A DNA stretch of 60,047 nucleotides from an uncultured Erysipelotrichaceae bacterium (GTDB lineage Bacteria; Bacillota_I; Bacilli_A; RF39; UBA660), in NCBI GenBank assembly GCA_902778125.1, contig CACYWH010000012.1:1-60047 (forward strand), read 5' to 3'. The position numbers were made by a program, and so were the translations under genes. Below, piece after piece: positions 38,131 to 59,801 of the stretch. Each line of letters opens with the position of its first letter. The first letter of the stretch is position 1. The notes under the pieces are model-generated. The model saw only the letters and a program-made list of their open reading frames with translations, was not told the origin of the DNA and ran no database searches.

Positions 38131-38706
38131 ATGAAGATTAAAAGAAAAATAATATTCTTTATATCACTATTATCATTATTCTACTGTGTTTCATTAATGC
38201 AAGAGACATATGCAAAATATATTTCAAGTGCCAATGCTAGTGCTGAATTAACAGTAGCAAGATGGAATGTTCTTGTAAACAATCAAGACATATTACAAAA
38301 TTCAAACTTTTCAGATAAAATTGCTCCTACTTTTGAAGGAACAACACATATTAAAAATGGTATTATAGCCCCAACTGCTGAAGGATACTTTGATGTTACT
38401 GTAAATGGAGAAGATACAGATGTTTCATTTGAATGGACGCTTACTCTTGAACCCGATGAAACAAATACAATAACAGATTTAGAAATAGTTAAATATTCAA
38501 TAGATAATGTAGAATATGCATATAATGATGCTATTACGCAAAGAGTTTTATTAAACGATGTTTCTCGTACTAAAACAGTTAGAGTATACGTAAGATGGAA
38601 TGATAATGCTGCAACTGAAACTATGGATAATGCTGATGATACAGCAGCAACTAAAACTGGAGTAGCAGCAATTAAAGTTGATTTAAATGTAATTCAAATA
38701 CAATAA
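38131..38706 (+). CDS. TasA/camelysin-like fibre subunit with SipW-class signal peptide
   Basis: Signal ending ETYA/KY, IAPTAEGYFDV, DVSFEWTL, VRWND...DT. Confidence 0.75.
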   Translation: MKIKRKIIFFISLLSLFYCVSLMQETYAKYISSANASAELTVARWNVLVNNQDILQNSNFSDKIAPTFEGTTHIKNGIIAPTAEGYFDVTVNGEDTDVSFEWTLTLEPDETNTITDLEIVKYSIDNVEYAYNDAITQRVLLNDVSRTKTVRVYVRWNDNAATETMDNADDTAATKTGVAAIKVDLNVIQIQ

Positions 38707-38707
38707 T

Positions 38708-38743
38708 AAAAACAGTTCATACCAATTAATCTGAACTGTTTTT
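38708..38743. terminator. Bidirectional terminator between convergent subunit genes
   Basis: AAAAACAGTTCA...TGAACTGTTTTT. Confidence 0.8.
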
Positions 38744-39405
38744 TAACTGTTTGATTGTGTTATATATACTTTTACTTTTAAAGTTATGCAAGGATCTGTT
38801 GGATTATCTTGCCTAAAATTATATGCTCTTGTTCCCCATTGAGTATCTAGCTCATCATTTCCTGATTCATATGCCCACGTAACATTAGTTGTAAATAATG
38901 CAAGTCCTGTTTCTGCTTCCATACTTTGTGAAGAAATATTAAATGATATTTGAAAGGGATATTCATTAAGTAATCTTGTTTTAAGTTGATCACTTGTCAA
39001 ATCACCTGTTACTGATTGCTCACCTTTTTCAGCCCTTCCCTCAATAGTTACATATTCATCGCCCATTATATTCGCTTCTAAAATGCTATAACTTACATTA
39101 GCCATTACTTCACTGTAGTTAAATGCTTTTAATTCATTTGTAAAGTTTGGCATTCCAGGATAAATGTTATCAACTACAACATTAACATAGTCAACAATTT
39201 GGTCATCGCCATCTTTAAAGTCAATTTTCCAAGATGCAACATGTACATCAACAGTATTATTTACCGTATTAACATAGATTAACCAAGCATATGAATTGGC
39301 TACTAGTAATAAAAACAATATAACAAAATGTCTTATTTTAACTTTTTTTAAAATTTTAGCAAAAGTAACTTTCTTTTTTTTCTTATTCTCCGTCATCACC
39401 ATCAT
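38743..39405 (-). CDS. TasA/camelysin-like fibre subunit with SipW-class signal peptide
   Basis: Signal ending NSYA/WL, NIYPG, VTWAYE...DT. Confidence 0.75.
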   Translation of the reverse strand: MMVMTENKKKKKVTFAKILKKVKIRHFVILFLLLVANSYAWLIYVNTVNNTVDVHVASWKIDFKDGDDQIVDYVNVVVDNIYPGMPNFTNELKAFNYSEVMANVSYSILEANIMGDEYVTIEGRAEKGEQSVTGDLTSDQLKTRLLNEYPFQISFNISSQSMEAETGLALFTTNVTWAYESGNDELDTQWGTRAYNFRQDNPTDPCITLKVKVYITQSNS

Positions 39406-39952
39406 CCTTATTAAACATAGATGAAATGATTTCTATTGAAATAACTACTCCTATTGTCATAAATAATATATAATATGATATTCTATTATTCATAAGTTTA
39501 CCAAACGTGCTTAATAATTTTGTTCTATATATTATCTTACCATATATCTGATTATATGTAATTTCAGGGTCTGGAATAGTATTAGCAAGGCCCTTAGTAG
39601 TAAAGTATGTTACCCCATCCCTTTCTTCTTTTTGTATTACTTTATGAGTAACAATTAAGCCATTTAAAGAACTTTTTTGTCCCCTGTAAGTTACATTATC
39701 GCCAACATTAATATCTTCCTCTTTAACAGCTTTAGATACTAAAATATCACCGACATGATATTCATCTTCCATTGATCCAGATACAACCATAAATACTCGC
39801 ACACCAAAGAAAGACATATCATTGTTACTAAATTTTTGTATTCCAACTACCAATAACAGTAGTGCCATTACAATAAATAACAATATTTTTATTGCTTTTA
39901 CAAAAATATTATTTTCAAATTTTTCTTTAAAATTTTTTACTGTTTTTTTCAT
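39383..39952 (-). CDS. sipW: SipW-type (ER-type, Ser-His) signal peptidase I (start moved from 40009 to ATG 39952)
   Basis: VVSGSM, VGD, VTHKV, TKG.AN, GK; N- and C-terminal TM helices. Confidence 0.88.
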   Translation of the reverse strand: MKKTVKNFKEKFENNIFVKAIKILLFIVMALLLLVVGIQKFSNNDMSFFGVRVFMVVSGSMEDEYHVGDILVSKAVKEEDINVGDNVTYRGQKSSLNGLIVTHKVIQKEERDGVTYFTTKGLANTIPDPEITYNQIYGKIIYRTKLLSTFGKLMNNRISYYILFMTIGVVISIEIISSMFNKDDGDDGE

Positions 39953-39956
39953 GTTA

Positions 39957-41084
39957 TCACCTAAAACTAAATTCTGTAATTTTATTGACATAAGCATCGA
40001 TTTTATCATTAAACTTACGTTCTAATTCAGCAAGAGTTGCCTCATTTTTATTTTTAATTACAGCTAGTTTATCTCCTATTACTTCTTGTATTTTTTCGAT
40101 TGGTAAATCTGCATTTAATTCAATTATTTTATCAATCATTTTATTTGTTAAATCTTCAACCATCTCTGTTTTAGCATCAACATCAAGTTCACCCTCATCT
40201 TTATTAATACTCATTATAGTTAAGTAATTAAGCAAAAATGTATCATCTAACATTTGATGTATTTCAACATTGTCCTCAATTAATTTTTTATCTTTCTTTA
40301 CATTATTATCATATGTAGCATTTGCCTGAATAAAATCCCATAATTTCATAGCATATTGAAAGTTAACATTTTTTAATATTAAGTTAGTTTTCTTAATTGG
40401 AGGTATTACTCTCGCAACATGTTCTTTAGCAAGAGAAACATACACCGGCATATTTGTTAAATCAGAAACTCTTAATTTTAATCTTTCAAGTCTCTGCATA
40501 GGATTCATTCCATTTCTAATGCCATCTTCTTTATCATAATTAGTTTTTGATGTTATTACCATATTAATATTAATTTTTTCTGCACCTATCTTACTTACTC
40601 CATTATATTCACAAGTTTTAACATCTTTTAATTTAGAAGAAGATACTAAATTTCTTTCTTTCATTTCAATAAATAACTTCATATTATTTATAAGAGTATA
40701 AATTAGTCTATTTTCATAAGTATTGTAGCTCTCATCTTTATTAATATTTAGTATTTTTGATGGCTTAACATCTCCATTATCCTCAATCTCTTGAATAAAA
40801 TTTGTATGCTTTGCTAAGTGTTTAATACTTTCTACTGTAATTCTTCTTGCTTGCTCAACTTTAACAATTTCTTCTTCGTTTACAATGAATCTATTTGGGT
40901 TTCTCAATATATTATCTAAATACATAATAGTATCTTCCATAATATCTAACCATGTAAAATCCGCTTCCACTTTTTCATAATTAGAAGCAAGTGAATATTG
41001 TGATTTTAATGATGCATTAAATTTTGTTAATTTTTTAGATCTAGTCGCATTATATAATTGCACAACTTTCAATTCATTTTGCAT
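39957..41084 (-). CDS. DUF2357/McrC-N-like protein without a visible nuclease domain
   Basis: SIKHLAKH, PSKIL, YNTYENRLI and KTNLILKNVNF..AMKLW motifs; directly follows the McrB-like gene; C-terminus is coiled-coil-like. Confidence 0.7.
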   Translation of the reverse strand: MQNELKVVQLYNATRSKKLTKFNASLKSQYSLASNYEKVEADFTWLDIMEDTIMYLDNILRNPNRFIVNEEEIVKVEQARRITVESIKHLAKHTNFIQEIEDNGDVKPSKILNINKDESYNTYENRLIYTLINNMKLFIEMKERNLVSSSKLKDVKTCEYNGVSKIGAEKININMVITSKTNYDKEDGIRNGMNPMQRLERLKLRVSDLTNMPVYVSLAKEHVARVIPPIKKTNLILKNVNFQYAMKLWDFIQANATYDNNVKKDKKLIEDNVEIHQMLDDTFLLNYLTIMSINKDEGELDVDAKTEMVEDLTNKMIDKIIELNADLPIEKIQEVIGDKLAVIKNKNEATLAELERKFNDKIDAYVNKITEFSFR

Positions 41085-41105
41085 AGTTTTAACCCTTTCT
41101 ATTCA

Positions 41106-42647
41106 TTATCCCATTTTCTTAAGTCTTAATACATATTCAATACATTCTTTCATCTTATTTTCGCCGAATGTTTTATTTAAGAAATCTACAAATCCATCGA
41201 TTTCATCACGAATCAATGAAATATTTAATTGTTCAAATTTACGTAAAATTTTCTTAGCAATAAAGTAATCTACACCATCTACTTCATCTCCACCACAGGC
41301 AACATATACAGGAACAAATTTCTTCATGTGAGCAACAATTCTGTTACCAAAGGCAATTCTGAAGTGTTTAATAACATAATCATCCATCTCTTCAATTTTT
41401 TCAAGTACTTTTTCAGACATTTGATTATTTGCAATTGCCTCTTTAAATAAATTGTTTAAGTATGAATAATTTATATCTTGAGCAGGTGTATCAATTGGAT
41501 CAAAAACTTGACCTTTATCATTGATATCAAGCGGCATAGCACGGTCGTAAACTTTATCAGTTACCATAAATGTTGAGTCATCGTTATTGATTGTTCCAAT
41601 ATACCAACAGTTAGGTGGTATTTTTAATTTACCATTCTTTAAATGAACTGGGTCGCTTGGCCAACCTGAAGAAACAACCTCAACAATCCATTCATCTTGA
41701 TTTGGCATCTCTAATATAGATAGCATTTCTGCAAAATAGTATTCTACACGAGAGATGTTCATTTCATCTAGGATTACTGTATGAATATCATCAGTATATC
41801 CAGCTTCATATAACGTTCTTAATATATCTGTTTCATTGAACTTTTTAGTAAATTCGTTGAAATATCCAAATAGTTCTGATCTATCACGCCATGATGGCTG
41901 TACAGAAGCAACACAGGAATCGTGTTTTAAAAATTTTCCCCAAGCATAAGCAAGTGATGTTTTACCAGTACCAGATATACCTTGTAAAATTACAAGCTTT
42001 GTACTTGCTAATGCTGATATAAATAATCTAATCATTTCAGATTTATAATATAGTCTTAATTGACTTGCTGCAAAATTTCTAAATATTTCAACAAGTTCAG
42101 GTAATGTAAATGTATTTCCATAATTAGGAATTTTGTAATTCTCATATTCAACATCTACATCATGCAATTTAGCAAATCTAATTGCAGTATTCTTATCAAG
42201 TTCTTCTTCACCACCTGAAGAAGCTGCTTCACCGTTTTCATTTAAAACAGGACTTTCATCAGGCTTCAATCCAAGCTGTGAAATCTTCATTGCCAAAATA
42301 TCTTCCTTTTCTTTTAGTAAAGATGCAACTCTACCATTTAAGTCAGATATTTCATCCAACATAGATTCTTGTTCAACAACTGTTTTTCTAAATCTAACAT
42401 ATTTTCTTATAATATATACGATTAATAATACTACTAGTCCTACAAATATTAATAAAAGTAATATTGATACCCCAAATAATACCCATTCACTAATATTAAA
42501 GTCTCCCTTATAATCATTAGCGATTCTTATATATGATTTAACATCGAATATTTTTTTAACTCCATCAAAGAGTCCTTTAAATATTGAGATAAACCCTGAG
42601 AAAAATTGAGATAATATTTCATAAAAATATTTTAAAAATGTTCTCAT
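41106..42647 (-). CDS. Membrane-anchored McrB-family AAA+ NTPase
   Basis: Walker A QGISGTGKT, VQPSWRD..ELFGY, Walker B ILDEMN, SRVEYYFAEMLS, NxxD-type signature GTINNDDS, SDKV-like TDKVYDRA; N-terminal TM helix at about aa 55-80 and a coiled coil. Confidence 0.85.
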   Translation of the reverse strand: MRTFLKYFYEILSQFFSGFISIFKGLFDGVKKIFDVKSYIRIANDYKGDFNISEWVLFGVSILLLLIFVGLVVLLIVYIIRKYVRFRKTVVEQESMLDEISDLNGRVASLLKEKEDILAMKISQLGLKPDESPVLNENGEAASSGGEEELDKNTAIRFAKLHDVDVEYENYKIPNYGNTFTLPELVEIFRNFAASQLRLYYKSEMIRLFISALASTKLVILQGISGTGKTSLAYAWGKFLKHDSCVASVQPSWRDRSELFGYFNEFTKKFNETDILRTLYEAGYTDDIHTVILDEMNISRVEYYFAEMLSILEMPNQDEWIVEVVSSGWPSDPVHLKNGKLKIPPNCWYIGTINNDDSTFMVTDKVYDRAMPLDINDKGQVFDPIDTPAQDINYSYLNNLFKEAIANNQMSEKVLEKIEEMDDYVIKHFRIAFGNRIVAHMKKFVPVYVACGGDEVDGVDYFIAKKILRKFEQLNISLIRDEIDGFVDFLNKTFGENKMKECIEYVLRLKKMG

Positions 42648-43634
42648 TTACTCACCTCTTAATGTTATCATTGTTGTTTTAACATCGTCTCGACTATTCA
42701 TAATAATATCATAATATCTATACTTTTTATCAAGGAAAATATATGTAAATAGTAGTAAACAACTAAAATCCATATCATATGTCTCATCAAGTTCAAGAGA
42801 GATACTAAACCCTTGATTAATTAAATTATTTATTTGTTTCTTATATTTTTTATAATCTTGATATTTAATTTTTAAATGTATCTTTGTTTTTAAATAATCA
42901 TTATCTATAGCTTTAATATATTTTAATATTTTCTTTTGCTTATCAAACAATGATACAGGAAAATCTATAACATAATTATTATCATATTTTAGTTCCATTG
43001 AATCTTTTAGAACTCTAGAAGATAATAATAGTAACATTAAATATACTTTATTTTCAATAACAACTTCTGAATCATATGCTCTTTCTATAGCATATTCACT
43101 ATATAATTTTGAAACGCTAAAATCATGTAATAAATCAATAACAATAACGTTATTATCATAAGTTGTTTCTTCTAAGTGAAAATCCTTTGACTCAAATAAT
43201 TTATAAAATTCATTTCTTTTACTAATATATTCTCTTGCTAAACTATTTAACTCTTCTCTAGTATTTTCACTATATGTTAGTGTAATAGTTTTATCACTGA
43301 ATAAAGATTTGATTATTGAATTTAATTCAGTAAAACTATTACATTTTTCAATAAATAATATATAACTGAATAAAGCGAATATATTTTTGACTTTCTCTGT
43401 CTTATCTTTACTTTCATTAATTATTTCTTTAGCAACATTATTTAATTCTTTATTTAATCTAACAGTAAACTTATTATCAAGAATTACAGAATCATTATAA
43501 TATCTTACGGAAATATATTTATCTATAAGTGGTCTTACTAATCTTCTTTCATATTTATTTTCAAGAAGTAGTCTAAAATAGTTAGAAAGAAAGTTTTCTA
43601 CAAATTTAATATAATCATCAAAAATACAATTCAT
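42648..43634 (-). CDS. Hypothetical protein with degenerate EAL-like C-terminal region
   Basis: YVIDFPVSLF...KIHLKIKYQD...INNLINQGFSISLELD mirrors the EAL-fold N-x-S / E-I-T-E / G-x-x-I-A-L-D-D layout without the catalytic residues. Confidence 0.45.
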   Translation of the reverse strand: MNCIFDDYIKFVENFLSNYFRLLLENKYERRLVRPLIDKYISVRYYNDSVILDNKFTVRLNKELNNVAKEIINESKDKTEKVKNIFALFSYILFIEKCNSFTELNSIIKSLFSDKTITLTYSENTREELNSLAREYISKRNEFYKLFESKDFHLEETTYDNNVIVIDLLHDFSVSKLYSEYAIERAYDSEVVIENKVYLMLLLLSSRVLKDSMELKYDNNYVIDFPVSLFDKQKKILKYIKAIDNDYLKTKIHLKIKYQDYKKYKKQINNLINQGFSISLELDETYDMDFSCLLLFTYIFLDKKYRYYDIIMNSRDDVKTTMITLRGE

Positions 43635-43642
43635 TCTTCCTC

Positions 43643-44542
43643 CTAACTAGCAGAAAAGGTTACAACCGATGTATTATTTACAATTGGATATGTCCAATTT
43701 CTACTACTATCCCTTTTATAAAATCTTATTTCTTTACTCATCATAACATCCATTGGAAATGTTATGTTGCTAATATAATCAACCCCGTTATAATTTGTAG
43801 TTTGATATGTAGCTGATGACATTATTTCACTTGTCGTATCTAATATTATTACCGACGGATTAAATGATAATGTAATTACAGCAGAAGCACATTTGGCTTT
43901 ATTTTCATCACTTAAAGCTAAATAATCATTAGTAGTTATTAAATCATTTACTGAATAATCACCAAATGCAGTTATTACCTTGTAAGTATCAAGTGCATTT
44001 GTTATTGAAAAAATTAAATATGGTGATCCTTCACTATCGGTAATTTCATAATCAATGCCTCTTCTACCAACAGTAACAACAAATGTAGCACTCAATGTTT
44101 TAACATAAGGTGTACTTGATGTGGCTGATACAGTAACAGTAACAGACTCATTATCATTAAATGGTCTAGTTGGAGTTAATGTAAGAGTAAAATCATCTGT
44201 TTTTTCAGCAACTTGTATTACACCACTATCTGAACTTAATGAACAAATAAGTCCATTATCACAAGTAATATCTAGAGTATACTCTATATCAGTATCGCTG
44301 GTTAAAATATTATTCTTATGATTATTAAGTTCAAATTGTATTTCAATATTACCAGCACCACCCCAGTTATTAATTCCATAAGTTACACCACCAGAAACTA
44401 ATTTGTCGCTATTAAAAAAGAAATGATTAGCTTCCATTATATAATTTCTTATGTTTTCAGTGATATACCTACTAAATGTAATACCAACTGGAAGTAATAG
44501 TATTAAGATTATCAAAATTATTATTAATCTTCTTCTCTTCAT
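43643..44542 (-). CDS. Fibre subunit-like exported protein with SipW-class signal peptide
   Basis: Signal ending ITFS/RY, FFFNSD.L, DIEYTL; Ser/Thr- and beta-strand-rich. Confidence 0.7.
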   Translation of the reverse strand: MKRRRLIIILIILILLLPVGITFSRYITENIRNYIMEANHFFFNSDKLVSGGVTYGINNWGGAGNIEIQFELNNHKNNILTSDTDIEYTLDITCDNGLICSLSSDSGVIQVAEKTDDFTLTLTPTRPFNDNESVTVTVSATSSTPYVKTLSATFVVTVGRRGIDYEITDSEGSPYLIFSITNALDTYKVITAFGDYSVNDLITTNDYLALSDENKAKCASAVITLSFNPSVIILDTTSEIMSSATYQTTNYNGVDYISNITFPMDVMMSKEIRFYKRDSSRNWTYPIVNNTSVVTFSAS

Positions 44543-44584
44543 TGCTATTCTCCAATCATAAAAATTATAGCATATAAAAAGAGA

Positions 44585-45199
44585 TTATGCAACTTGAGAA
44601 GCCTTAATTATTATTGAAAATAATTCAACAAATCCTTCATACAAGTCTGGATAATCTTTATAACTTTCTGGAAATACAACTTTTAATATATATTCATCTG
44701 TTTCATTTGCAGAATGCCTAAACCTAGTAGTAACATCACTTTCAAATACTTTATAGTATACATCATTTTCATCTTGTCTTATTGAAGAACTACTAATGAT
44801 ACTAGTATAATCATCATCATAAGTTTCATTTTTAATTATTTCATATTGAAGCGGTAAATTAGTTGTTGTTTCAAATGTAACAGTATAATCCAAATCTACA
44901 TCTGCTCTTTTTTCATCATTAAAATTTCTAACATAAAATCTATAATATTTGGGTTCATCACTAGGTTCTAATCCAGTTATAGATATAGAACCCTCATATG
45001 TTCCTTGATCTATTATAAAAAAGGCAACTTGTGCATTTGCACTAACATCCGCTTCTGATTCATACCTAGACATAGTAGATGAACCAATATTAACAATAAT
45101 TACTAAAGCAGCAAAAATAAATATTAATTTACCTACTAATATAAATTTATCCTTATCAAATTTTTTAATTAAACTTTTAAGCATCCTTATCCTCATCAA
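44585..45199 (-). CDS. TasA/camelysin-like fibre subunit with SipW-class signal peptide
   Basis: Signal ending STMS/RY, GLEPS, FYVRN, DVDLDYTV, TTNLPLQY. Confidence 0.72.
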   Translation of the reverse strand: MMRIRMLKSLIKKFDKDKFILVGKLIFIFAALVIIVNIGSSTMSRYESEADVSANAQVAFFIIDQGTYEGSISITGLEPSDEPKYYRFYVRNFNDEKRADVDLDYTVTFETTTNLPLQYEIIKNETYDDDYTSIISSSSIRQDENDVYYKVFESDVTTRFRHSANETDEYILKVVFPESYKDYPDLYEGFVELFSIIIKASQVA

Positions 45200-47113: not shown

Positions 47114-47158
47114 AAAACCTCACTTTACCTTAATTCAATTATAATATTACTAAATTTA

Positions 47159-48746: not shown

Positions 48747-48756
48747 AAATTCCTCC

Positions 48757-54700: not shown

Positions 54701-57700
54701 TCTACCACAATTTCTCTAGGTGCATCATGCGAACCAGAGTTTCTTCCTCCAACATATATTCCAGCAGCATAATCTGCCTTGTTAGTTCCAAATTGCCCAC
54801 TTTTTACAGTAGTATGTAACATAGGAGTAGTAATATTTTGTCCATGTACATTTCCATACCACGAACCTGACAAACAATAAACTACTGTTAGTTTATCATT
54901 ATCTTCATCATTAACTCTATCATAATCGCAACCAAATGTTCCGTATGAATCAACATACATATTACGTGTTCCAATATAGTTTGTATTTCCACCTGTTGAT
55001 GTTAATCCAAGATTATTATATACTCCAGATTCAACTATAAATGTATGTTTAGTAAATGATGAACTTGAACCAGTATTAGAAATATTTCCTCCAACTGCAT
55101 AAGTAAAACTAGTACGAGAACTATCATAAGCAGTAATTCCTCTTCCAAGTTTCAAATTATAATAGTTACCATAAATACCCGAATATTCAGGATCAGAATA
55201 TCTTGCGCTGTATGTAGCAGGCGTAGTATCATCACTTACTCTAGTTGCACCATTTGCTCTAATTTGTTCTATTCTAGTATCTGCATAACAAATAACATAA
55301 TCATTATTTCTTAAGTTCCAATAATATGTATTAATATAACTTGTTCCATTATTTATAGCAGTTATTGTTACAGGTTTATTTTGACTAGATCCCCATGTTG
55401 ATGTAACTGTACTATTCATTACAACAATGTTAGTATCTCTAGTAGTTTTATAGTAATAGCCACCGCCTTCAACAACTACTTCAGCATCTCCATTTGCATC
55501 ATAATATTGGATAAGTTCATAATAATTATTACATCCTCCGCTTGTAGTACACGTACCAGATGTTAATAATTCACCATTTGTATTATAATAACCAGCCAAA
55601 CTAGCATTTCTTGGTATATTAACATTTCTATAATATCCACTTATAGTTTCTCCTATAGGAACTTCACTTACATAATTATTTCCCACTACTGTTGGATATA
55701 CTCTAGTCATTCTTCCACCTTGAAGTGTGTAATAGTAATTACTATTATTATATGTACCACTAAATGGAACATAACATGAGCAGCCATAGTAACTATATCG
55801 GCTACAGTTACCAGTTAAAGCATCACCATATTGATCTACTGCGCCACTAGGATAAGCTGCTCCTCTATCAATAGTAGTTGAAACATAAACGTTTTCATAA
55901 TTAAGTACATCAGTACTATGTGCAATCGGATGAAATCCAGAAGCATCTAAATTACTAAAAGTGTTAGACCAACTTGAAGAATATGTAGTTACTTTACCAT
56001 TTCCCCATACTGAGTAAAAATCAATTACTATATTGCTTGGATTGTTTCCAGAATATGATACAGGAATTTTTGCTCTTCTTACATATACATCAGTATCTAA
56101 AGTTATTTCAACATCTTCTTCATCAGTAATCCATCCTTGGAATACTTTATTATTAGGTCTTCTAGCAAATGGATTATCTATTAAGTCTACTTCGATATAA
56201 TCATCACTATTATCACCTGTTGTTCCATTATTGTTAACAACATAAACTTTATAATAAATAAACTGATTTTCTGTTTCACTAATTGATACAGTACCGGTGT
56301 AATTACCATTAATATCCGTTCCATGATAATTAATTTGAGTATAAACTAAATTTGTATCACCATATACATTTTTATTTTCTGTTGTTGGAATAGTTCCATT
56401 AGAAGAATATGTATAATTTAATCCTTCGTAATAATTAGCATCACTTTCATAATCATTTACATATACGGTAGTGCCTTCTATACCACTTGCATGCGCAGAA
56501 GGAGCACTTCTTAATGACTTTTTAGCAACTAGTTTTCTACCATCATTTTTTCCATTATTTTGTAATCTAAACGTATTATCCTCAAGTTTCCATTTTAAAG
56601 ATGAACCACTATTTAATAAATTTAGCATAGATTTAACTGGATAATTACCAAAGAAATATAACTTACCATTATTTATATAGTATTCATATATATTTTCATC
56701 ATTATTATAATCATAATTTTTTATTAATTCTAAGCCAGTATTACTCCAAATAATATTTTCTAATTCAGAATCATTATATGAGTTAATAAATAATGTAGTG
56801 TTTTCAAGTTCACTATTTCCTACTATTACAATGTTTTTAAAAGTATTATTTTCTTTATCATTTAACACAAATAATGATGAATTAACTTCTTTTTCATCTT
56901 GCTTATTAACAAGTTTAATATTATTAATACTAATATTGCTAATACTAGATTCCTGCATATCTTTAATTAATCCAACATTTACTTTTTCAATAACTATTTT
57001 CTTTTCGATTACTTCTTCTTCAACTGTTTTTTCACTAGTTATACTTTCTTTTTCATCAGAAGATACATTAGGATCTTCATCATTTGAACTTTTTTCAGAA
57101 TCAGTTGAAATATTAGAATCAGATTCTATTTTTTCTATAACTTCATCTTTTTCTGTTTCACTTTCTTCTACTTTCTTATTTTCTATAACAGATTCTGTTT
57201 CAACTTTATCATTATTTGTAACTGATTCTGTCTCGCTTTTATCACTTTTTTCAGTAGTAGAAGTAGAATCAACTTCATTGTCTTTTGATTCAGTTGGATT
57301 ACTATTATCTTTTGATTCTATATTTTCTTCTGTATTTACAATATTTTCAGGTTCTTTTTCAACTACTAGTTTAAGTACCACATCGTCTACTTTATTTACT
57401 TCAAATGTTATATCAGAAAAATTAATATTCTTAATATCAGCTCCAAATAGATTATTAAATAAAGCATAGTTAGCTTCAGAATTATCCTCGCTTAAATAAT
57501 ATTTATCAATTTTAAAATTGAATATTGAATAACCATTACCATTTAAACTACCACTAAATGATTTATCACTAGCAAATGAAAAACTACGTCCATTTAAATT
57601 GATATTATTGTTAATTTCATAAAATTTATTAAAATACTCATCATGCTCTTCACCATTAATCAATGTAAAGAAATAAGCAAGTTCAGAACCGCTATTAATT

Positions 57701-57888
57701 ATATATGGATCAGTAGATGTTCCACTGCCTGATGCAAACTTACTTGCAATACTTCCATCCCAAACAGAAGATGTAGTTTTTTCACTAAAAGTAGTATATA
57801 TCACAAAAATGTTTACAGCAAAAAATAGAAGTAAACTTACTACTAATAAACGTTTTTCTTTAAGTTTTTGTAAAATATTCTGTAACAT
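48757..57888 (-). CDS. Giant 3043-aa surface adhesin-like protein with GGG beta-solenoid repeats
   Basis: N-terminal hydrophobic helix ending TTFS; WDG...GSGTSTDPYII...EL domain; acidic linker; dozens of (V/I)(Y/F)GGGN repeats of about 24-30 aa; no LPxTG or C-terminal TM. Confidence 0.88.
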   Translation of the reverse strand: MLQNILQKLKEKRLLVVSLLLFFAVNIFVIYTTFSEKTTSSVWDGSIASKFASGSGTSTDPYIINSGSELAYFFTLINGEEHDEYFNKFYEINNNINLNGRSFSFASDKSFSGSLNGNGYSIFNFKIDKYYLSEDNSEANYALFNNLFGADIKNINFSDITFEVNKVDDVVLKLVVEKEPENIVNTEENIESKDNSNPTESKDNEVDSTSTTEKSDKSETESVTNNDKVETESVIENKKVEESETEKDEVIEKIESDSNISTDSEKSSNDEDPNVSSDEKESITSEKTVEEEVIEKKIVIEKVNVGLIKDMQESSISNISINNIKLVNKQDEKEVNSSLFVLNDKENNTFKNIVIVGNSELENTTLFINSYNDSELENIIWSNTGLELIKNYDYNNDENIYEYYINNGKLYFFGNYPVKSMLNLLNSGSSLKWKLEDNTFRLQNNGKNDGRKLVAKKSLRSAPSAHASGIEGTTVYVNDYESDANYYEGLNYTYSSNGTIPTTENKNVYGDTNLVYTQINYHGTDINGNYTGTVSISETENQFIYYKVYVVNNNGTTGDNSDDYIEVDLIDNPFARRPNNKVFQGWITDEEDVEITLDTDVYVRRAKIPVSYSGNNPSNIVIDFYSVWGNGKVTTYSSSWSNTFSNLDASGFHPIAHSTDVLNYENVYVSTTIDRGAAYPSGAVDQYGDALTGNCSRYSYYGCSCYVPFSGTYNNSNYYYTLQGGRMTRVYPTVVGNNYVSEVPIGETISGYYRNVNIPRNASLAGYYNTNGELLTSGTCTTSGGCNNYYELIQYYDANGDAEVVVEGGGYYYKTTRDTNIVVMNSTVTSTWGSSQNKPVTITAINNGTSYINTYYWNLRNNDYVICYADTRIEQIRANGATRVSDDTTPATYSARYSDPEYSGIYGNYYNLKLGRGITAYDSSRTSFTYAVGGNISNTGSSSSFTKHTFIVESGVYNNLGLTSTGGNTNYIGTRNMYVDSYGTFGCDYDRVNDEDNDKLTVVYCLSGSWYGNVHGQNITTPMLHTTVKSGQFGTNKADYAAGIYVGGRNSGSHDAPREIVVEGGYIYNLIGGPLSQTSIKNYNDSYIYVKGGSIDIIIGGAGRSETYGNRIIQVTGGTINYAVFGGSNGIEGDDTQYTSTVDGDTYIYIGGTATIGDEDLVSNNSIEPNSEVEAGSVFGIGNGKSGHDSIGTANNSNIVINSSATINRNVYGGGNYGATGQNGSNKTYATNIVVNGGDIQGSVYGGGNNNGAGTTSNTCNVNITMKDGNVHGSVYGGSRTKGRIYGSTNVNVLGGKVYTDVYGGGEGGYTDSTNYGTFVNGNVSVNIGQSTSGPTINGNVYGGSAYGTVNATSINPSSNRKTVNVTVNNGNVIGSVFGGAKGSSSFTPYVAGPITVTVNNGTINNVFGGFDEAGKPASDATVYINGGVTTNVYGGGNKTSIDNTHVYLRGGGVTTMYGGSNQQGDVLKTNISIEGGQVATVFGGNNEGGTCSETNVSVTGGSITTALYGGGNLVDTGTTKIDVYNVNNIVPNIYGGGNQAGATTTTINLHKQSGNNNINVTNVYGGSNQDGLVTTSNVTVEHGAIGNVFGGGNSVGVTTTNVTVSTDSSITVTNIYGGSNQTGDVTTSNVTINTGTIGNVYGSNNAGGSTGTTNITINNGTITDSVYGGGNEAEAGTTYVTMYNGSATTIYGGGNKADVTTTNVTLNGGTTTTIFGGGNEAKADDTHVTINNGTSTTVYGGGNKADVETTTVILNGGTTTTIFGGGNEAKADDTSVTINNGAVSNIYGGGNQAVVNNETNVTITGVSNTITNVFGGGNQAGATVTNVTVTPTNGNVNITNVFGGSNQSGTVGTSNVQVDNGTIDVLYGGNNAGGTTTNANVEVNNGTITSVYGGGNQAQTNTTDVKVTNGTINILYGGGNAANVTGNTKIDMTGGTVSTYIYGGGNQGSVLGSTDVKISNANAGISAFGGGNGSTANVNGNTSLKIYNSTTTGNIYGGGNNGKVLGSTNVVINNGTIGGSAYAGGNGSSATVMGNTNILVGGTTSVGSPSCTVLSTCSVFGGGNAAITGSESTNNSIASVNIAGATIYGNVYGGANTSKVFGQTMVNIGDDVTLVNDVTKGNVAITGTVFGGGEANASGSDVYDWTFVSVTRGTNVSINGNNREVFTIGGSIFGSGNASTTSGPSLITIKNYGTFSNPKKNTSIQRCDKVVIDNSSIILKGATDRENEFSDVLFSLSRIDELDLVNNSTLYLETGANLLQEFKSLTSSGDKAAVTINKDTGNVTKNTDNRIYMLTAKVQNVLNIAKNQNVTDYGEVSGMTFFGMYRYDSNNNIYRGIYDKHDYGDTLDWGGVFDNVTAYVLGLHKTNHDIEVDGFYSNYMDEETSTNMMDYITPTPPTGPLYMWTIGEGVIEYTVELSASKYSTLGTTELSLRDFTDPNTSFQVLGFDYSELESGIQLIEKRNVKKIADTENEANTIFGLSMETSNIGWLVNGSTSFLSDSNESVKGTEEYIGGNNEGAPSLLFYLHHSKNVSNSGSLGKVRIQLMSIRQIDALTKETKRLIITVEMSRTLISTVDYEGAMTAGRKYDLFTSTATNITSSSSISAYYSLFNVGSNTYREGYHRALVSTYVLPLDTKITMIDLSGNNPEYYYHVIDNVDVARATADVAAVGETDYKLSLFEAMGALNSGVYYNDATKNVSYCSTGNYCNEDFVFIIDFGDTNITADQLRNKLLIEMLNADEDTIYSVLAPQHDNLTYNVYVDRDALIDINGTIDKEKIYAGEAMIADLEIDYTQSMVGSVVIYDTHYFDSKLGIKVSLLNEDLSVVPGTTLLGLYYQIDGVRYYPNIDGTTRIKVADKVDSAEKWLIVNTGTSKIASGNYILRVESFGSPDGIYYGLNSSDHVDFNIEIVNEIYGLDIETTSEEMIIDASTGLNANEENSIIYNVSYNSGLRNPKLNFKMYRRNYDEVYDTTWTLVDAKDYFSGALSNGFVEKEYVALQRPTDNSSFTFNLKDNLISGTYKLEFILYDDSSAIGTVVKYIIIK
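52545..52830. repeat. Near-identical 144-bp tandem duplication within the adhesin repeats
   Basis: TCAGCTTTAGCTTCGTTTCCTCCGCCAAATATAGTTGTCGTTGTTCCACCATTTAGT starts at 52571 and again at 52715; the protein unit is 48 aa. Confidence 0.85.
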
Positions 57889-57917
57889 TTACTACCTACT
57901 TTCCCATTCTAGTTAAA

Positions 57918-57946
57918 ATTATAGCATAAAGATGTCGAATTAACAA
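57918..57946 (-). promoter_or_regulatory. Internal promoter of the adhesin gene with a Spo0A-box match in the spacer
   Basis: TTGTTA (57941-57946)-17 bp-TATAAT (57918-57923) with extended TG; TGTCGAA at 57933-57939. Confidence 0.5.
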
Positions 57947-57970
57947 GATTTTACACTCTTTTTTGCCAAA

Positions 57971-57999
57971 TAAAAAACGGGTTAAAACCCGTTATTTTT
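57971..57999 (-). terminator. Terminator after the 359-aa subunit gene
   Basis: AACGGGTT-AA-AACCCGTT hairpin with T-run on the minus strand. Confidence 0.75.
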
Positions 58000-58002
58000 A
58001 TA

Positions 58003-59073
58003 CTATTCAGCGTCTTGGATTGTTAATCCTAAATTATAAGTTAAGAATGCACCAGAAGCGTTGTTTTCACAATCGTGATCTTGTCCTTCAATCCACATAT
58101 AAACTCTAACTTTAGTAACTCCTTCACTTAATGAGAAGATTTTAACTAAATTAGAATCAGATGCACCTTTTCCATAATAAGAATATGTATCATCATCTGT
58201 CTTAGAATAAGCAACATTAGTTTTCTTAATATTTGCAGTTGGAACTGCTTCAAAATATGTAGAATTTGGTGTTGCTCCACCACCAGGGTTAGTATCCTTT
58301 AAGATGATTGGTGTAGTAATTGGCGCTTTAATTCCAACATAATCAACAGGGTTTTCACCGCTTGTAGCTTCATTTAAAGTAATATTGTAATATTGACTAG
58401 CAGTAGTAACTGCACTACTTGTATGAGCGTCATAATTTGGTTCAACTATAATAGAAGATGTTCCGCCATGTAATGCTTGAGCAGTTTCTGCAGAGTTAGT
58501 AGATGCAGTATTACCTTCAATTACAAAAGCATATCTAGCAGCATATTCTAAATATTTTGGTGATTTACCACTTTGATTAACAACACCTGAACCTCTATCT
58601 AAATAAACATCTGTGTTTTGGTCAACTTTTAAGAAAATGTCGAACGCAACGAAATCAGAAGTAGGATTTTGAGCAGTCAATGCAGCTTCATCAGCTGTTT
58701 TAACAGCAGTTAATGCCATAGCACCATCTAAATCAGTAGCACCTTCAACTGTTCCTCTATAGAAGTTTAGGTATCCATTAGTTACACTACCACTAGTAGA
58801 TACTGGTGTTAACTCTCCAGTTAACATATTTTTATGTCCAGAATATCCAGTAGTAATGTCTGTATTAGTTACCATGGTTTTCCAATTAGTTGCATCAGTA
58901 GAAATTTGTAAACCAGAGCTTGCTGCAATATGTACATCTATAGGATCAATACTTACAGATTTGTTTGCAGTAAACCATGCATATGTTGATGTTGATAATA
59001 ACAATACTGTTAATAAAAGTAACAACACCAATGATTTTAATCTTTTGTTTTTCTTTTCATTTTTCTTAGCCAT
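58003..59073 (-). CDS. Probable major fibre subunit with SipW-class signal peptide (start moved to ATG 59073)
   Basis: Signal ending STYA/WF, GLQIS.DA..WK, LTPVST, VRVYMWIEGQDHDC; close to the promoter and followed by a terminator. Confidence 0.8.
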   Translation of the reverse strand: MAKKNEKKNKRLKSLVLLLLLTVLLLSTSTYAWFTANKSVSIDPIDVHIAASSGLQISTDATNWKTMVTNTDITTGYSGHKNMLTGELTPVSTSGSVTNGYLNFYRGTVEGATDLDGAMALTAVKTADEAALTAQNPTSDFVAFDIFLKVDQNTDVYLDRGSGVVNQSGKSPKYLEYAARYAFVIEGNTASTNSAETAQALHGGTSSIIVEPNYDAHTSSAVTTASQYYNITLNEATSGENPVDYVGIKAPITTPIILKDTNPGGGATPNSTYFEAVPTANIKKTNVAYSKTDDDTYSYYGKGASDSNLVKIFSLSEGVTKVRVYMWIEGQDHDCENNASGAFLTYNLGLTIQDAE

Positions 59074-59078
59074 TAGCC

Positions 59079-59801
59079 TCACTCCAATTCTTTAATTGTA
59101 TCATCATTATGTTCTTCAATAAGCTTCATGTGCAACCTAGCATGACCGCCTATGAGAGCATCTACACACTCAGGATCGTCTCCCTCAATCCAAACAACTA
59201 CCGTTATTTTATCAAGGTCGCCCGCCTTCATGTCTTTTCTTTGTTCTAATATAATAGTACCGTCTTCATCATCCCTAAATTTTTTAGTACCCTGTTCAGC
59301 TTCGCCATTTATACTACTACCTTTAGCATAAACTGTTTGTTCGTCATTTACATATATCATTATTCTAAGTGCTTCATCAGCATGCTTAACAACATCATCC
59401 ATGACTACGGAATACCAATAGTTTAAAGTCACTTGGCCTTGATTCTCCATATAGAATGAATAAGCAATATAATTCTTACCATTATGTGATCCTTCATGTT
59501 CAGTTATATCACTCGGAAGCCATTTTATAGATATGTTATCCATAAATTGTAAATCCTTTGCTTTTAATCTTCTCTTAGGTGTAGGATCATTTAATGATTC
59601 ATACATTGCAAGTCCACTATACAGCATTTCATTTTTGTCTAGTGATACGATGAAACTACCATCATCAAAAAGTATTCTAAGAACAATATAGAAAATTATT
59701 AATAATAGAAGTAATAAAAATATAGATAATTTAGCATATTTTCCTAACTTATGCCAATTTCTAACCTTATTTGCTTTTACTACTACATCTTTCTTTGCCA
59801 T
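59079..59801 (-). CDS. Membrane-anchored subunit-like protein (no TxA cleavage motif)
   Basis: TM helix without a SipW cleavage site; YSFYMEN.G, ALRIMIY, ITVVVWIEGDDPEC shared with the 359-aa protein. Confidence 0.72.
   Translation of the reverse strand: MAKKDVVVKANKVRNWHKLGKYAKLSIFLLLLLLIIFYIVLRILFDDGSFIVSLDKNEMLYSGLAMYESLNDPTPKRRLKAKDLQFMDNISIKWLPSDITEHEGSHNGKNYIAYSFYMENQGQVTLNYWYSVVMDDVVKHADEALRIMIYVNDEQTVYAKGSSINGEAEQGTKKFRDDEDGTIILEQRKDMKAGDLDKITVVVWIEGDDPECVDALIGGHARLHMKLIEEHNDDTIKELE

Follow-up and report, generated by a model that had tools for sequence, protein, structure and literature searches.

The type of system considered here was named CoCoPALM in 2024 (Bell et al., eLife; PMC11090510); that paper devotes two sentences and two supplement rows to it, deferring its analysis, and likens its peptidases to SipA of sortase pili. 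BsaA, a TasA-family protein, polymerises by donor-strand exchange with T4P proteins aiding export (PMC11580942). Donor-strand assembly has been solved for TasA, whereas for the locus presented here it would apply by analogy.

The window (the whole stretch of DNA that was analysed, 60,047 nucleotides) comes from an uncultured gut bacterium of ruminants with a small genome (1.27 Mb; 87% complete). The locus spans positions 38131-59801 (21.7 kb), bounded precisely by the starts of g01 and g15; rpsF and ssb directly follow it, and it has no phage or mobile-element genes as neighbours. The initial annotation had counted fifteen minus-strand genes and one convergent gene; the convergent g01 is present, while the minus strand carries fourteen (g02-g15), with no further gene because the intergenic gaps leave no space. 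It had also called the system undescribed, which does not hold: in CoCoPALM (PMC11090510), signal peptidases are already linked to a membrane-anchored McrB GTPase of the NxD type and to a McrC that lacks the nuclease. Shared features include the N-terminal membrane helix and coiled-coil-like stretch of the GTPase, the DUF2357 domain of the McrC homologue, signal-peptidase-family genes within the operon and the occurrence in Bacillota. Family assignments do bear out that secreted subunits are grouped around SipW, with a McrBC-like module embedded among them. We consider it reasonably probable that the locus is a CoCoPALM-type system in the form of a Sec/SipW-dependent surface-fibre operon with a fixed, membrane-anchored, McrBC-derived GTPase module. 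Its features are given below; hhalign values for g01, g02, g08 and g10 refer to a set of 15 independent proteins with Peptidase_M73 hits, taken from loci outside such clusters (the M73 set).

38131-38706, plus strand: g01, 191 aa, convergent, secreted TasA/camelysin-like subunit (signal ETYA-KY; hhalign 97.3%, 168 columns)
38743-39405, minus strand: g02, 220 aa, secreted TasA/camelysin-like subunit (signal NSYA-WL; hhalign 92.4%, 153 columns)
39383-40009, minus strand: g03, SipW/archaeal-type signal peptidase I (TIGR02228, 80 bits; SGSM and TH-K motifs)
39957-41084, minus strand: g04, 375 aa, cytoplasmic McrC-like protein with DUF2357 N-domain (PF09823, 42.5 bits; cut-off 23.3)
41106-42647, minus strand: g05, 513 aa, membrane-anchored NxD-type McrB-family GTPase (PADLOC PDC-M26A, E 1.4e-35)
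42648-43634, minus strand: g06, 328 aa, cytoplasmic (present in 78/80 related loci)
43643-44542, minus strand: g07, 299 aa, secreted, no family assigned (signal ITFS-RY)
44585-45199, minus strand: g08, 204 aa, secreted (signal STMS-RY; hhalign 78.6%, 109 columns)
45177-45965, minus strand: g09, 262 aa, SipW-type signal peptidase I (TIGR02228, 82 bits; Peptidase_S24/S26 matches)
45943-46596, minus strand: g10, 217 aa, secreted TasA/camelysin-like subunit (signal NTFA-LF; hhalign 97.1%, 173 columns)
46583-47113, minus strand: g11, 176 aa, degenerate SipW paralogue (TIGR02228, just 21 bits)
47159-48652, minus strand: g12, 497 aa, cytoplasmic, Lys/Glu/Asn-rich, accessory (present in 21/80 related loci)
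48757-57888, minus strand: g13, 3043 aa, giant secreted protein (N-terminal membrane helix, then conserved [ST]FSE)
57976-57993, minus strand: terminator-like hairpin between g14 and g13 (7 bp, 4 GC, T-run)
58003-59082, minus strand: g14, 359 aa, candidate major subunit (signal STYA-WFTAN; beta-sandwich)
59079-59801, minus strand: g15, 240 aa, membrane-anchored paralogue of the g14 C-part (membrane helix 27-45; cleavage motif absent)
59867-59895, minus strand: promoter-like TTGACA-17-TATAAT, 12/12, about 66 nt upstream of g15

Two of the three genes annotated as SipW-like are intact: g03 has the catalytic Ser and His, g09 carries the catalytic motifs SGSMEP and THR, and both exceed the TIGR02228 cut-off of 51.85 bits. 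Judging from N-terminal gaps in orthologues, the listed ATG of g03 is probably some 19 codons upstream of the true start. The third gene, g11, is degenerate; it aligns with g03 and g09 at 99.5-100% (hhalign), has Arg at the Ser position in the window, does not conserve Ser and His across 61 orthologues, and its product is probably non-catalytic. This degenerate copy is confined to the window's family, and in other families both copies carry Ser and His (23/23).

All six signal endings reported earlier are present as written (TYA-KY in g01, SYA-WL in g02, TFS-RY in g07, TMS-RY in g08, TFA-LF in g10 and TYA-WF in g14) and are kept in orthologues. Behind a hydrophobic stretch, the motif occurs in 19 of 1271 genome ORFs (≥100 aa), and six of these 19 are locus proteins encoded within 1.7% of the genome, which exceeds chance level. 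With the giant g13 as the seventh, seven locus proteins carry TasA-type signals. No LPxTG-like motif was found in the 15 locus proteins, making sortase-independence of the locus plausible. Sortase is absent from the window, as annotated, though the genome has four sortase matches, all on other contigs.

By profile comparison, g01, g10 and g02 are homologous to the TasA/camelysin family, distantly but over their full length; seven unrelated locus families reach at most 1.8% against the M73 set in the same hhalign comparison. g01 is a paralogue of g10 (BLASTP E 9e-12; hhalign 100%). The AF2 model of g02 is a beta-sandwich (pLDDT 86), for which Foldseek places TasA (5of1/5of2) at ranks 7 and 10 with E ~1e-2, outranked by CUB domains. 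The N-part of g08 is linked to g01, g02 and g10 at 92-96% (hhalign) and its C-part is possibly TasA-like; TIGR04087, modelling the TapA N-part, gives g08 14.5 bits, far under its cut-off. Matches of g07 are Ig-like and all sub-threshold. Among 47 subunit candidates in related loci, two pass the Pfam cut-off of PF12389 (30.5 and 27.5 bits), one of which also matches the g01 and g10 HMMs.

While these homologues uphold part of the fibre reading put forward in the initial annotation, g14 is TasA-like only over 39 N-terminal columns aligned with the M73 set, which counts against it. The suggested TIGR04088 check gave g14 15.9 bits by hmmscan (below 19) and 21.1 bits in a genome search. Two null results also count against a fibre: none of the seven window proteins reaches the TasA/camelysin or TapA cut-offs of Pfam or NCBIfam, and a PF12389 search of the 87%-complete genome found no match. 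The AF2 model of g14 (pLDDT 81) has as its best VIA rows the TasA fibre (Z 4.7, rmsd 4.3, 142 aligned), a Sulfolobus thread (Z 4.4), the CS17 pilin (Z 4.1) and cannulae (Z 4.0), the best being donor-strand fibres. The fold matches of g14 and g02 (best Z 4.7 and 5.5) fall within what the tool terms 'common arrangements', and Foldseek E never reached 1e-3 or below; the nearest named ESM cluster of g14 is PF12389 (score 0.85), a lead only.

Across g14 orthologues, AWF[TS]xN and K-x5-arom-x-E-G are found in 54/54. g15 aligns with the g14 C-terminus (hhalign 83.5%, 39 columns), and g15-like proteins of other families match both HMMs; this C-terminal module is common to the two proteins, with a cleavable signal in g14 only. 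g14 and g15 make up a separate family, with g15 as a candidate fibre base or terminator. The repeat protein g13 is real. It combines a Ser/Glu/Lys-rich linker, a Gly/Thr/Asn-rich solenoid-like repeat core (~1125-2131) and a beta-rich C-terminal part, with 29 [YF]GG[GS]N-type motifs recurring every ~24-28 residues. Its [ST]-F-S-E after the membrane helix is kept in 14 of 16 aligned rows, Pfam searches with the whole protein or four pieces gave no match, and we regard it as a candidate adhesin. The promoter is the single 12/12 match in the 20 kb scanned, where total promoter-like sites are not above shuffles; the hairpin is a consensus match only, its kind occurring 5 times in 20 kb (expected 3.3). 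At least eight near-identical short contigs from an RNA-seq library fall on g04, g05, g13, g14 and g15; they hint at transcription but may be carried-over DNA.

g05 comprises a conserved N-terminal stretch of 55 aa, a membrane helix (62-80), a heptad stretch (~90-127), an AAA+ domain (~195-375) and a conserved C-domain. Its profile matches E. coli McrB in the PDB (E 1e-3) with Walker A and B aligned. All 137 family representatives in the alignment have N-x-D. At the fourth position 102 have D, 30 have E and 5 another residue, and an NxxD reading therefore fails in 35/137. The positively charged flank of the membrane helix places the NTPase in the cytoplasm. g04, present in 79/80 related loci, has no hydrophobic segment, and its nuclease residues are not conserved, with no invariant acidic residue after position 124 among 46 sequences. 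g06 belongs only to the form of the system seen in this lineage and had no match in Pfam, NCBIfam, PADLOC or PDB searches; a weak ESM-feature lead to EAL (0.90) found no backing in hhalign (0.5%). Pfam, NCBIfam and PADLOC searches with g12 gave no family match.

As the initial annotation had proposed to survey, the gene set is kept together in other genomes. Relatives of g05 were detected in 129 of the 401 genomes taken from the order (62/145 genera) and in 90 of 399 from the phylum, with 1-3 copies per genome. The mean column identity for g05 is 79%. The order g07-g06-g05-g04-g03-g02 is found in 40/40 related loci of at least 20 kb, 38 of them also with g01; g07, g02 and g01 are present in 74, 75 and 69 of 80 related loci, respectively. 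Other families of the phylum share a core of a g15-like protein, one to three g14-like proteins, SipW, g05, a g04-like protein, a small TxAWF protein, SipW and further TxAWF proteins. Membrane proteins flanking related loci carry EAL in 11/11 tested and GGDEF also in 10/11, and local EAL HMM matches occur in 13/22 distant loci. EAL genes were found in 0/80 loci of the window's own family and not in the genome, and the 'signalling-like genes' of the initial annotation were not substantiated, no gene of the window having a signalling domain. The flanking genes point to biofilm-type control in the relatives; at the window's locus, where EAL genes are absent, c-di-GMP control would be hypothetical.

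We propose that the locus most likely serves a c-di-GMP-era adhesion or biofilm fibre, with the GTPase module presumably helping assembly or export. By analogy to TasA and C. perfringens BsaA, signal peptides would keep the subunits tethered, the subunit added before would insert its freed N-terminal strand into the newcomer, and SipW would cleave the newcomer after strand insertion; since it is the newcomer that is cut, the fibre would grow from its base. With nothing but a free N-terminus to offer, g13 would sit at the tip, g14 would make up the shaft, and g15 would stop growth and keep the fibre in the membrane, as it can accept a strand yet cannot be cut. The annotated roles of g15 as anchor, g14 as major subunit and g13 as tip are consistent with this anatomy. 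More tentatively, a g05 hexamer with g04 in its pore could use GTP to gate or drive a trans-membrane step, be it subunit hand-over to SipW, polymer passage through the wall or on/off control; the module would cut no nucleic acid. Co-occurrence is the sole link of g05 and g04 to the fibre proteins. Two further findings count against this reading: the nearest family to the g05 GTPase domain is a defence candidate in PADLOC, and McrB-like/DUF2357 pairs of the same family (~900 aa) occur elsewhere without SipW genes.

Instead of an ordered pilus, the locus could encode a secreted coat or matrix, in which each SipW substrate is a surface or matrix protein in its own right (an adhesin, a camelysin-like protease or part of a loose BsaA/TasA-like gel) and g05-g04 is a GTP switch over secretion or peptidase activity rather than a motor. 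TasA-family proteins also form matrices and gels, camelysin was originally reported as a protease (hence the family name Peptidase_M73), the subunit families are mixed (g07, g14/g15 and the M73-like set are not all related), the fold matches are generic beta-sandwiches, and GGDEF-EAL neighbours would suit matrix regulation. However, an uncleavable, membrane-anchored g15 beside a cleavable g14 follows pilus-operon logic, the pair is framed by promoter and hairpin, several minor subunits keep a fixed order, and g14 has ordered donor-strand fibres as its best VIA rows; we consider a coat or matrix unlikely.

The PDC-M26A match and membership of g05 in the NxD branch that also holds CoCoNuT systems (PMC11090510) raise the question of conflict or defence, with the GTPase sensing or blocking phage or DNA at the envelope, or triggering abortive infection, and the secreted proteins acting as receptor decoys or being unrelated neighbours. 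Patchy presence in the order and variable copy number would fit. This reading is very improbable, given that nuclease or other effector domains are absent, g04, g06 and g12 have no PADLOC match, g05 starts with a membrane helix and lacks a DNA-reading domain, the gene arrangement with SipW and subunits does not change between families, and rpsF and ssb rather than phage or mobile-element genes adjoin. g05 is also the slowest-evolving gene of the locus (median identity 72% versus 30-49% for its neighbours), which does not look like a fast-evolving defence gene. Least probable of all, GTP hydrolysis could serve localisation rather than export: an FtsB-like helix and heptads of g05 would anchor the assembly of fibres or adhesins at the septum or pole. 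In keeping with this idea, g05 has one membrane helix, after which L97, N104, L111, L118 and L125 stand at heptad spacing, and the supplement rows of Bell et al. (PMC11090510) term the N-terminal part FtsB-like; yet their HHpred E of 1.2 is not significant, no DivIC/FtsB Pfam match appears at E up to 10, and the locus has no division genes.

Returning to the fibre operon, what is new here is the TasA-family link, the reading of g15 as anchor or terminator, the strong promoter and hairpin framing g15-g14, and the GGDEF-EAL genes beside related loci. Compared with the CoCoPALM paper, the peptidases are of the SipW/archaeal type, catalytic residues being present in two of three, and TasA-type signals mark the cargo; compared with CoCoPALM elsewhere, this lineage adds g06, g07, g12, a dead third peptidase and the 3043-aa protein, while g04 is short (375 aa versus 500-860 aa in other families). 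Similar to SipA/LepA of S. pyogenes pili (PDB 4n31), g11 is a dead signal-peptidase homologue in a putative pilus operon, but SipA serves sortase-linked LPxTG pilins, and both sortase and LPxTG are absent here. E. coli McrBC (PDB 6hz4, 6ut6) shares the AAA+ GTPase fold, with Walker A/B and sensor Asn aligned, and the DUF2357 partner, which in McrC plugs the hexamer; the present module differs in having a membrane anchor, NxD rather than NxxD and an operon of secreted proteins, and in lacking a DNA-binding domain and PD-(D/E)xK residues.

The tapA-sipW-tasA operon of B. subtilis (TasA fibre, PDB 8aur) likewise has a dedicated SipW and subunit signals of the T-x-A/aromatic type; g01, g10 and g02 are homologous to Peptidase_M73, and g15 compares with the membrane-proximal accessory TapA. 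That operon has three genes, compared to fifteen here, and contains neither NTPase nor giant adhesin, and g14 and g15 are not detectably TasA-family beyond the signal region. In sipW-bsaA-bsaB-bsaC of C. perfringens (Obana 2020, cited in the preprint PMC11580942), again from an anaerobic Firmicute, several TasA-family paralogues stand behind one sipW. Base growth with signal-peptide-tethered monomers is the model there too (PMC11580942), and the invariant N-terminal-strand Asn of g14 together with an invariant Lys and an invariant Glu (N40, K324, E332, from sequence) recalls BsaA N35-K74-E56. Each system would have an NTP-driven envelope machine helping export: T4P proteins encoded elsewhere in C. 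perfringens (PMC11580942), and an in-operon McrBC derivative here.

The genes at 38131-59801 form a real and conserved locus, and the reading that the initial annotation gave of it, as a SipW-dependent fibre system with an McrBC-like module, proved largely right. Its kind is not new: the locus is a rich example of a class that is named but wholly uncharacterised, and it supplies for this class a complete gene set together with predictions of cleavage sites. The host assembly comprises 1.27 Mb in 50 contigs (~26% G+C, estimated to be 87% complete), the window being one entire contig (C12, 60,047 bases). Fifteen genes follow each other with nearly no gaps, fourteen of them (g02-g15) on the minus strand and g01 convergent on g02; fifteen minus-strand genes plus the convergent one had been counted at first, so that the minus-strand figure was one too high, while the remaining observation holds.

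Table. Genes of the locus at 38131-59801. Given for each gene are the strand, a description, the number of matches in the best 80 related loci (many of which end at contig borders) and, for the subunits compared, the hhalign probability and aligned columns against an alignment of TasA/camelysin proteins (M73).
g01, plus: secreted, SipW-type signal; 69 matches; 97.3%, 168 columns
g02, minus: secreted, SipW-type signal; 75 matches; 92.4%, 153 columns
g03, minus: intact SipW-type peptidase; 76 matches
g04, minus: McrC-like protein; 79 matches
g05, minus: McrB-like GTPase
g06, minus: cytoplasmic protein, no family; 78 matches
g07, minus: secreted, SipW-type signal; 74 matches; 51.7%, 10 columns
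g08, minus: secreted, SipW-type signal; 44 matches; 78.6%, 109 columns (partial)
g09, minus: intact SipW-type peptidase; 67 matches
g10, minus: secreted, SipW-type signal; 69 matches; 97.1%, 173 columns
g11, minus: degenerate SipW-type copy; 68 matches
g12, minus: cytoplasmic protein, no family; 21 matches
g13, minus: 3043-aa giant protein; 57 matches
g14, minus: secreted, SipW-type signal; 56 matches; 91.8%, 39 columns, N-terminal only
g15, minus: membrane-anchored paralogue of the g14 C-part, lacking a cleavage motif; 47 matches; 1.4%, 6 columns
Controls (unrelated families of the locus, seven in all): no more than 1.8%

Reading of the sequences confirmed all six signal endings that had been proposed for the secreted proteins. 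The same motif behind a hydrophobic stretch occurs in 19 of the 1271 open reading frames of at least 100 aa in the whole genome, and six of these 19 are the proteins of a locus that takes up 1.7% of the genome. Signal motifs are kept among orthologues (AWF[TS]xN in 54 of 54 for g14), and a seventh signal, missed initially, follows the membrane helix of g13 as [ST]-F-S-E and is kept in 14 of 16 aligned N-termini. The giant protein itself matched no Pfam family at E up to 1, either whole or in four pieces. A sortase-dependent Gram-positive pilus is recognised by a sortase gene in the locus and LPxTG on its pilins, and both are absent, as had been claimed: the four sortase matches of the genome lie on contigs C1, C14, C15 and C18 only, and [LI]PxT[GAN] is found in none of the fifteen locus proteins. 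A cell wall is present in the organism, whose genome gives five matches to penicillin-binding proteins. Directly beside g01, rpsF and ssb (single-stranded DNA-binding protein) occupy 37131-37932, and the locus thus has housekeeping genes for neighbours and is not part of an island carrying mobile-element genes. From 50000 to 56000, along the repeat core of g13, G+C reaches 32-36% against ~26% elsewhere, which is an effect of the Gly/Thr-rich repeats and not a sign of foreign origin.

The three SipW-like genes of the initial annotation comprise two intact peptidases and one degenerate copy. Whereas g03 and g09 reach 80 and 82 bits against TIGR02228 (archaeal/SipW-type signal peptidase I; cut-off 51.85 bits) and keep the catalytic Ser and His as well as the S-M and H-[KR] motifs, their paralogue g11 (hhalign 99.5-100%) fails this model at 21 bits and carries Arg in place of Ser. 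Ser and His are unconserved across 61 g11 orthologues, and g11 is most likely non-catalytic, as judged from these alignments. All three stay below the Bacillus SipW equivalog cut-off of 190 bits, with 54-64 bits. A degenerate copy is peculiar to the lineage of the window; that a dead, chaperone-like peptidase upstream of the GTPase is a general rule was rejected, since Ser and His are kept in 23 of 23 flanking copies from other families.

A search for g05 relatives gave matches in 219 species genomes, and the best 80 loci from these genomes all belong to uncultured gut metagenome-assembled genomes with Bacilli, Tenericutes, Mollicutes or Clostridium sp. CAG titles. Median identity in related loci is 72% for g05 and 30-49% for all other proteins. 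The gene set is kept together elsewhere: the order g07-g06-g05-g04-g03-g02 recurs in 40 of 40 loci of at least 20 kb, 38 of which add g01, and the g15-g14-(g12)-g13 block is placed upstream, as in the window, or else downstream of g01. At larger scale, sampling of the order gave g05 relatives in 129 of 401 genomes (62 of 145 genera), and sampling of the phylum in 90 of 399; three families, represented by 54, 89 and 48 samples, gave none, and the genomes of two of them measure 0.7-0.9 Mb.

The McrBC-like module is confirmed for both of its proteins. A 46-sequence profile of g05 aligns with E. coli McrB among PDB entries (E 1e-3), including Walker A, Walker B and the sensor Asn, and g05 matches the PADLOC candidate family PDC-M26A far more strongly (E 1.4e-35); g04 matches DUF2357 (PF09823), the N-domain of McrC, with 42.5 bits, the match spanning positions 67-191 only. 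g05 opens with a conserved 55-residue N-terminus, followed by a membrane helix (62-80; KD 3.5), a basic R/K flank, a heptad-spaced stretch (L97, N104, L111, L118, L125) that may form a coiled coil, and the AAA+ domain. Its signature N354-N355-D356-D357 is invariant in 46 sequences, and N-x-D is present in 137 of 137 representatives of the wider family that cover the motif (13 of 150 are fragments lacking that part). The residue after N-x-D varies among these 137 (D in 102, E in 30, another in 5), and the signature is therefore NxD and not the NxxD of McrB. A hydrophobic segment precedes Walker A in 85 of the 138 family representatives with room for it. g04 has no invariant Asp or Glu past residue 124 (46 sequences) and no membrane segment, and its profile found a single match among solved structures, a helical designed protein (E 0.003). 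In McrBC restriction systems, McrC carries a PD-(D/E)xK nuclease and McrB a domain that binds DNA; here, given that g04 is without conserved acidic residues in its C-half and that the N-terminus of g05 is a membrane helix, the module has neither nuclease nor DNA reader.

The locus very probably belongs to CoCoPALM, a large clade of NxD GTPases that was named by Bell, Makarova, Wolf and Koonin (eLife 2024; PMC11090510) and, according to the accessible part of their article, left for a later paper. This assignment follows because every class feature tested is present: an NxD-variant McrB GTPase with an N-terminal transmembrane and coiled-coil ('FtsB-like') part, a DUF2357 McrC homologue with a missing or inactive nuclease, and signal-peptidase-family genes in the operon, of which g03 abuts g04 while g09 and g11 lie upstream. 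McrC homologues of the class usually carry a coiled coil as well; for the C-part of g04 the one pointer to such a structure is its match to the helical designed protein. The FtsB homology itself is unmatched in g05: an FtsB/DivIC identity of its N-terminal part was rejected, with no Pfam match at E up to 10, and the similarity is also weak in the accessible text of Bell et al. (E 1.2; PMC11090510). SipW-like genes stand beside g05/g04 in 15 of 16 distant loci with a g05-type GTPase (~500-570 aa), the remaining one (L118) having none in view. The description of the system as 'undescribed' cannot stand, since PMC11090510 already names the class. In a full-text search, Bell et al. and its preprint were the only sources for 'CoCoPALM' among 15 matches, and we found nothing joining RF39 with SipW, nothing on PDC-M26 and no paper on a SipW-McrB link. 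The 'conserved pilin' cluster of TANB77 (PMC11680825), considered as the same locus, was rejected, as it is a Tad/Flp type IV system in the accessible part of that source.

In 22 loci from other families, the core consists of a g15-like gene, one to three g14-like genes, SipW, g05 and a g04-like gene, then a small TxAWF protein, SipW again and additional TxAWF proteins; the g04 counterparts are longer there (500-860 aa). Membrane proteins flanking such loci carry EAL in 11 of 11 tested and GGDEF in 10 of 11, and a GGDEF-EAL pair (~470 and ~850 aa) stands directly beside the cluster at L120:14659-18704, L122:1224-5227, L126:15361-19348, L127:1982-5703, L136:2846-7063 and L168:14449-18387. A local EAL model matches 13 of the 22 distant loci versus none of the 80 loci of the window's family, in which g06 adjoins the GTPase where sister families have the pair. 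Judged from these neighbourhoods, c-di-GMP control of the CoCoPALM-type class is likely. The 'signalling-like genes' seen initially in the window are not there: its genome has no EAL and two GGDEF matches. We also considered g06 as a degenerate EAL domain and rejected this reading, as an ESM-feature lead (0.90, 9 of 30 matches) was unsupported by the PDB profile search, which returned nothing relevant among solved structures, and hhalign against 11 EAL domains gave only 0.5%; it remains a weak lead.

In a 50%-identity library, the wider GTPase family counts 868 clusters when E is limited to 1e-30, and 8640 when the limit is relaxed to 1e-3. Given that ~900-aa McrB-like proteins with DUF2357 partners occur without SipW genes, the SipW association is a property of a subclade and not of the whole family. 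At L132:7881-12150, L133:7819-12079 and L134:7872-12147, a ~900-aa McrB-like protein with an N-terminal membrane helix is followed by a 521-529-aa partner that the local g04 HMM matches in L132 (E 3e-10), not in L133 or L134; no SipW or secreted-subunit genes lie close by, and these loci are a different, unexplored use of the GTPase module. Higher-G+C genomes (L129:9270-12919, L130 and L131) have a ~610-aa GTPase class with a 332-384-aa SipW-like protein upstream and adjacent ABC-transporter-like genes, and the protein downstream of the GTPase is unmatched by the local DUF2357-family model. One genome (L125:10751-19720) has a g05/g04 pair that adjoins a membrane protein of 455 aa, weakly matching EAL, and a surface protein of 2511 aa; no SipW gene is in view. 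As cargo of these modules, giant proteins seem to be interchangeable. The window's own genome (G000) holds two simpler SipW loci, one on contig C5 (L091, G000:C5:17373-20816, and G000:C5:16021-19271) and one on C6 (L090, G000:C6:27222-30584). Both have small secreted proteins ending ...SLAYA-GF or ...VGFAA-YS, with weak matches to the g01 model (E 2e-4 to 6e-3), and, next to these, proteins of 378 and 386 aa in which a SipW peptidase is joined to a multi-pass membrane domain; the preceding ORF on C5 (253 aa, 16021-16782) has a hydrophobic N-terminus (MKLYISLFLFILGSVVGSF...) and may be prepilin-peptidase-like.

No window subunit reached a Pfam or NCBIfam cut-off. The TasA/camelysin model PF12389 (Peptidase_M73) matched none of the seven window subunits at E up to 10 and, with an E limit of 0.1, nothing in the genome, and the kinship with this family suggested initially, which the model itself left unmatched in the window, became visible as full-length homology of g01, g10 and g02 in profile-profile comparison. 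Among 47 subunit candidates of related loci, two passed the PF12389 cut-off (30.5 and 27.5 bits), one of them being also matched by the local g01 and g10 models, and a third lay below it (18.9 bits). For the M73 alignment, PF12389 was searched in 401 genomes of the phylum, with matches in 17 and 30 loci returned; 15 of these loci supplied one protein each, excluding long or sub-threshold ORFs and one match inside a CoCoPALM locus. Because of the scores against this alignment (Table) and the PF12389 passes in related loci, we regard g01, g10 and g02 as divergent full-length TasA/camelysin homologues, a relationship read from sequence profiles; g07 and g15 show none by this comparison. Within the locus, hhalign gives 100% for g01 versus g10, 91-96% for g02 versus both over almost the full length, and 92-96% for g08 versus g01, g02 and g10 in the N-terminal part. 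g14 aligns with g01, g02 and g10 at 78-95% in its first 39-56 columns only, and with g15 at 83.5% over 39 C-terminal columns; g14 and g15 are thus a separate family having only the signal/first-strand region in common with TasA/camelysin. The N-terminus of g14 scores 15.9 bits by hmmscan and 21.1 bits in a six-frame genome search against the SipW-cognate signal model TIGR04088 (cut-off 19 bits), and is its sole match in the whole genome by the latter search; the other six subunits were unmatched (hmmscan, E up to 10).

AlphaFold2 models from our own alignments are confident beta-sandwiches (g14, pLDDT 81 and pTM 0.81; g02, pLDDT 86), and the g14 model is least confident directly past the cleavage site (pLDDT 48-53). 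With an E limit of 1e-3, Foldseek returned no PDB entry for g14 or g02. The TasA fibre 8aur_A, at Foldseek rank 29, is the top row for g14 in the exhaustive aligner VIA (Z 4.7, rmsd 4.3, 142 aligned), followed by a Sulfolobus thread (Z 4.4), the CS17 pilin (Z 4.1) and cannulae (Z 4.0); all of these are donor-strand fibres, yet all fall under the tool's specificity level. For g02, the TasA crystal structures 5of1 and 5of2 take Foldseek ranks 7 and 10 (E ~1e-2), and CUB domains lead in VIA (Z 5.2-5.5). The g14 profile returned a chance row only among solved structures (E 0.28), with TasA absent; its closest named ESM Atlas cluster is Peptidase_M73 (0.85), which serves as a lead only. A homo-oligomer prediction with three copies of mature g14 (36-359, own alignment) scored 0.00 and is uninformative either way on donor-strand assembly. 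Overall, the modelled folds are compatible with the proposed fibre and not decisive.

The C-terminal motif K-x5-aromatic-x-E-G is common to g14 (54 of 54) and g15 (32 of 46), which are encoded at 58003-59801; in g14 it spans residues 324-333 and includes invariant K324 and E332. An invariant Asn (N40), found in g14 only, lies five residues into the mature protein, in the predicted donor strand. In BsaA of C. perfringens, a donor-strand Asn bonds to an acceptor Lys with a catalytic Glu, according to the accessible part of the source (PMC11580942), and the three g14 residues are reminiscent of this isopeptide triad. By consensus match only, a 12-of-12 sigma-70 promoter, the single one in the 20 kb scanned, stands ~66 nt upstream of g15, and g14 and g13 are separated by a GC-rich hairpin with a T-run; the pattern would be that of a major-subunit pair under strong expression, from which read-through reaches the genes downstream. 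Near-identical DNA was present in 17 runs (at least half of the sampled words) from bovine, sheep and goat gut metagenomes; 20 runs of 13 studies, one possibly the source, hold at least part of it. One sheep-gut RNA-seq library contains at least 8 short contigs with 0-5 differences on g04, g05, g13, g14 and g15, a hint of transcription only, given that carried-over DNA is possible; the depth of such contig-based runs is unsuited to ranking genes.

On balance, we favour a polymeric surface fibre whose subunits are processed by SipW and whose operon includes the GTPase module. That the GTPase acts in assembly or export of this fibre, and not purely in its regulation, is a tentative proposal. A role of the module in defence is very improbable, because the locus contains no effector, g05 is its slowest-evolving gene and gene order is fixed together with the secreted proteins. 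The favoured fibre can be extended to a joint reading, which we consider speculative and rather unlikely as a whole, in which g05-g04 would be a new envelope motor: a hexameric GTPase from a restriction enzyme, having lost its DNA and nuclease functions, would act through six membrane helices and power either growth from the base or wall passage of a donor-strand fibre of TasA type. g15 would then be an uncleavable, PapH-like terminator-anchor and g13 the tip adhesin, and N40 of the donor strand together with K324/E332 of the acceptor module, which is present in g15 too, might lock one subunit to another through an intermolecular isopeptide bond, of the kind reported for BsaA.

With 1.7% of a reduced 1.27-Mb genome spent on it, the locus probably plays a central part in attachment, whether to hosts, to food particles or to microbial partners. 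The current view of TasA-type fibres is that they self-assemble extracellularly with no energy input. In the window, as in hundreds of gut species with small genomes, the operon for such fibres always includes a highly conserved cytoplasmic GTPase derived from a restriction enzyme. Should this module drive or gate assembly, the view of TasA-type fibres would change, and a defence motor would have been re-used for building the cell surface. If the envelope-motor reading were true, Gram-positives would have a third pilus machine powered by NTP, in addition to those of type IV and conjugative pili.
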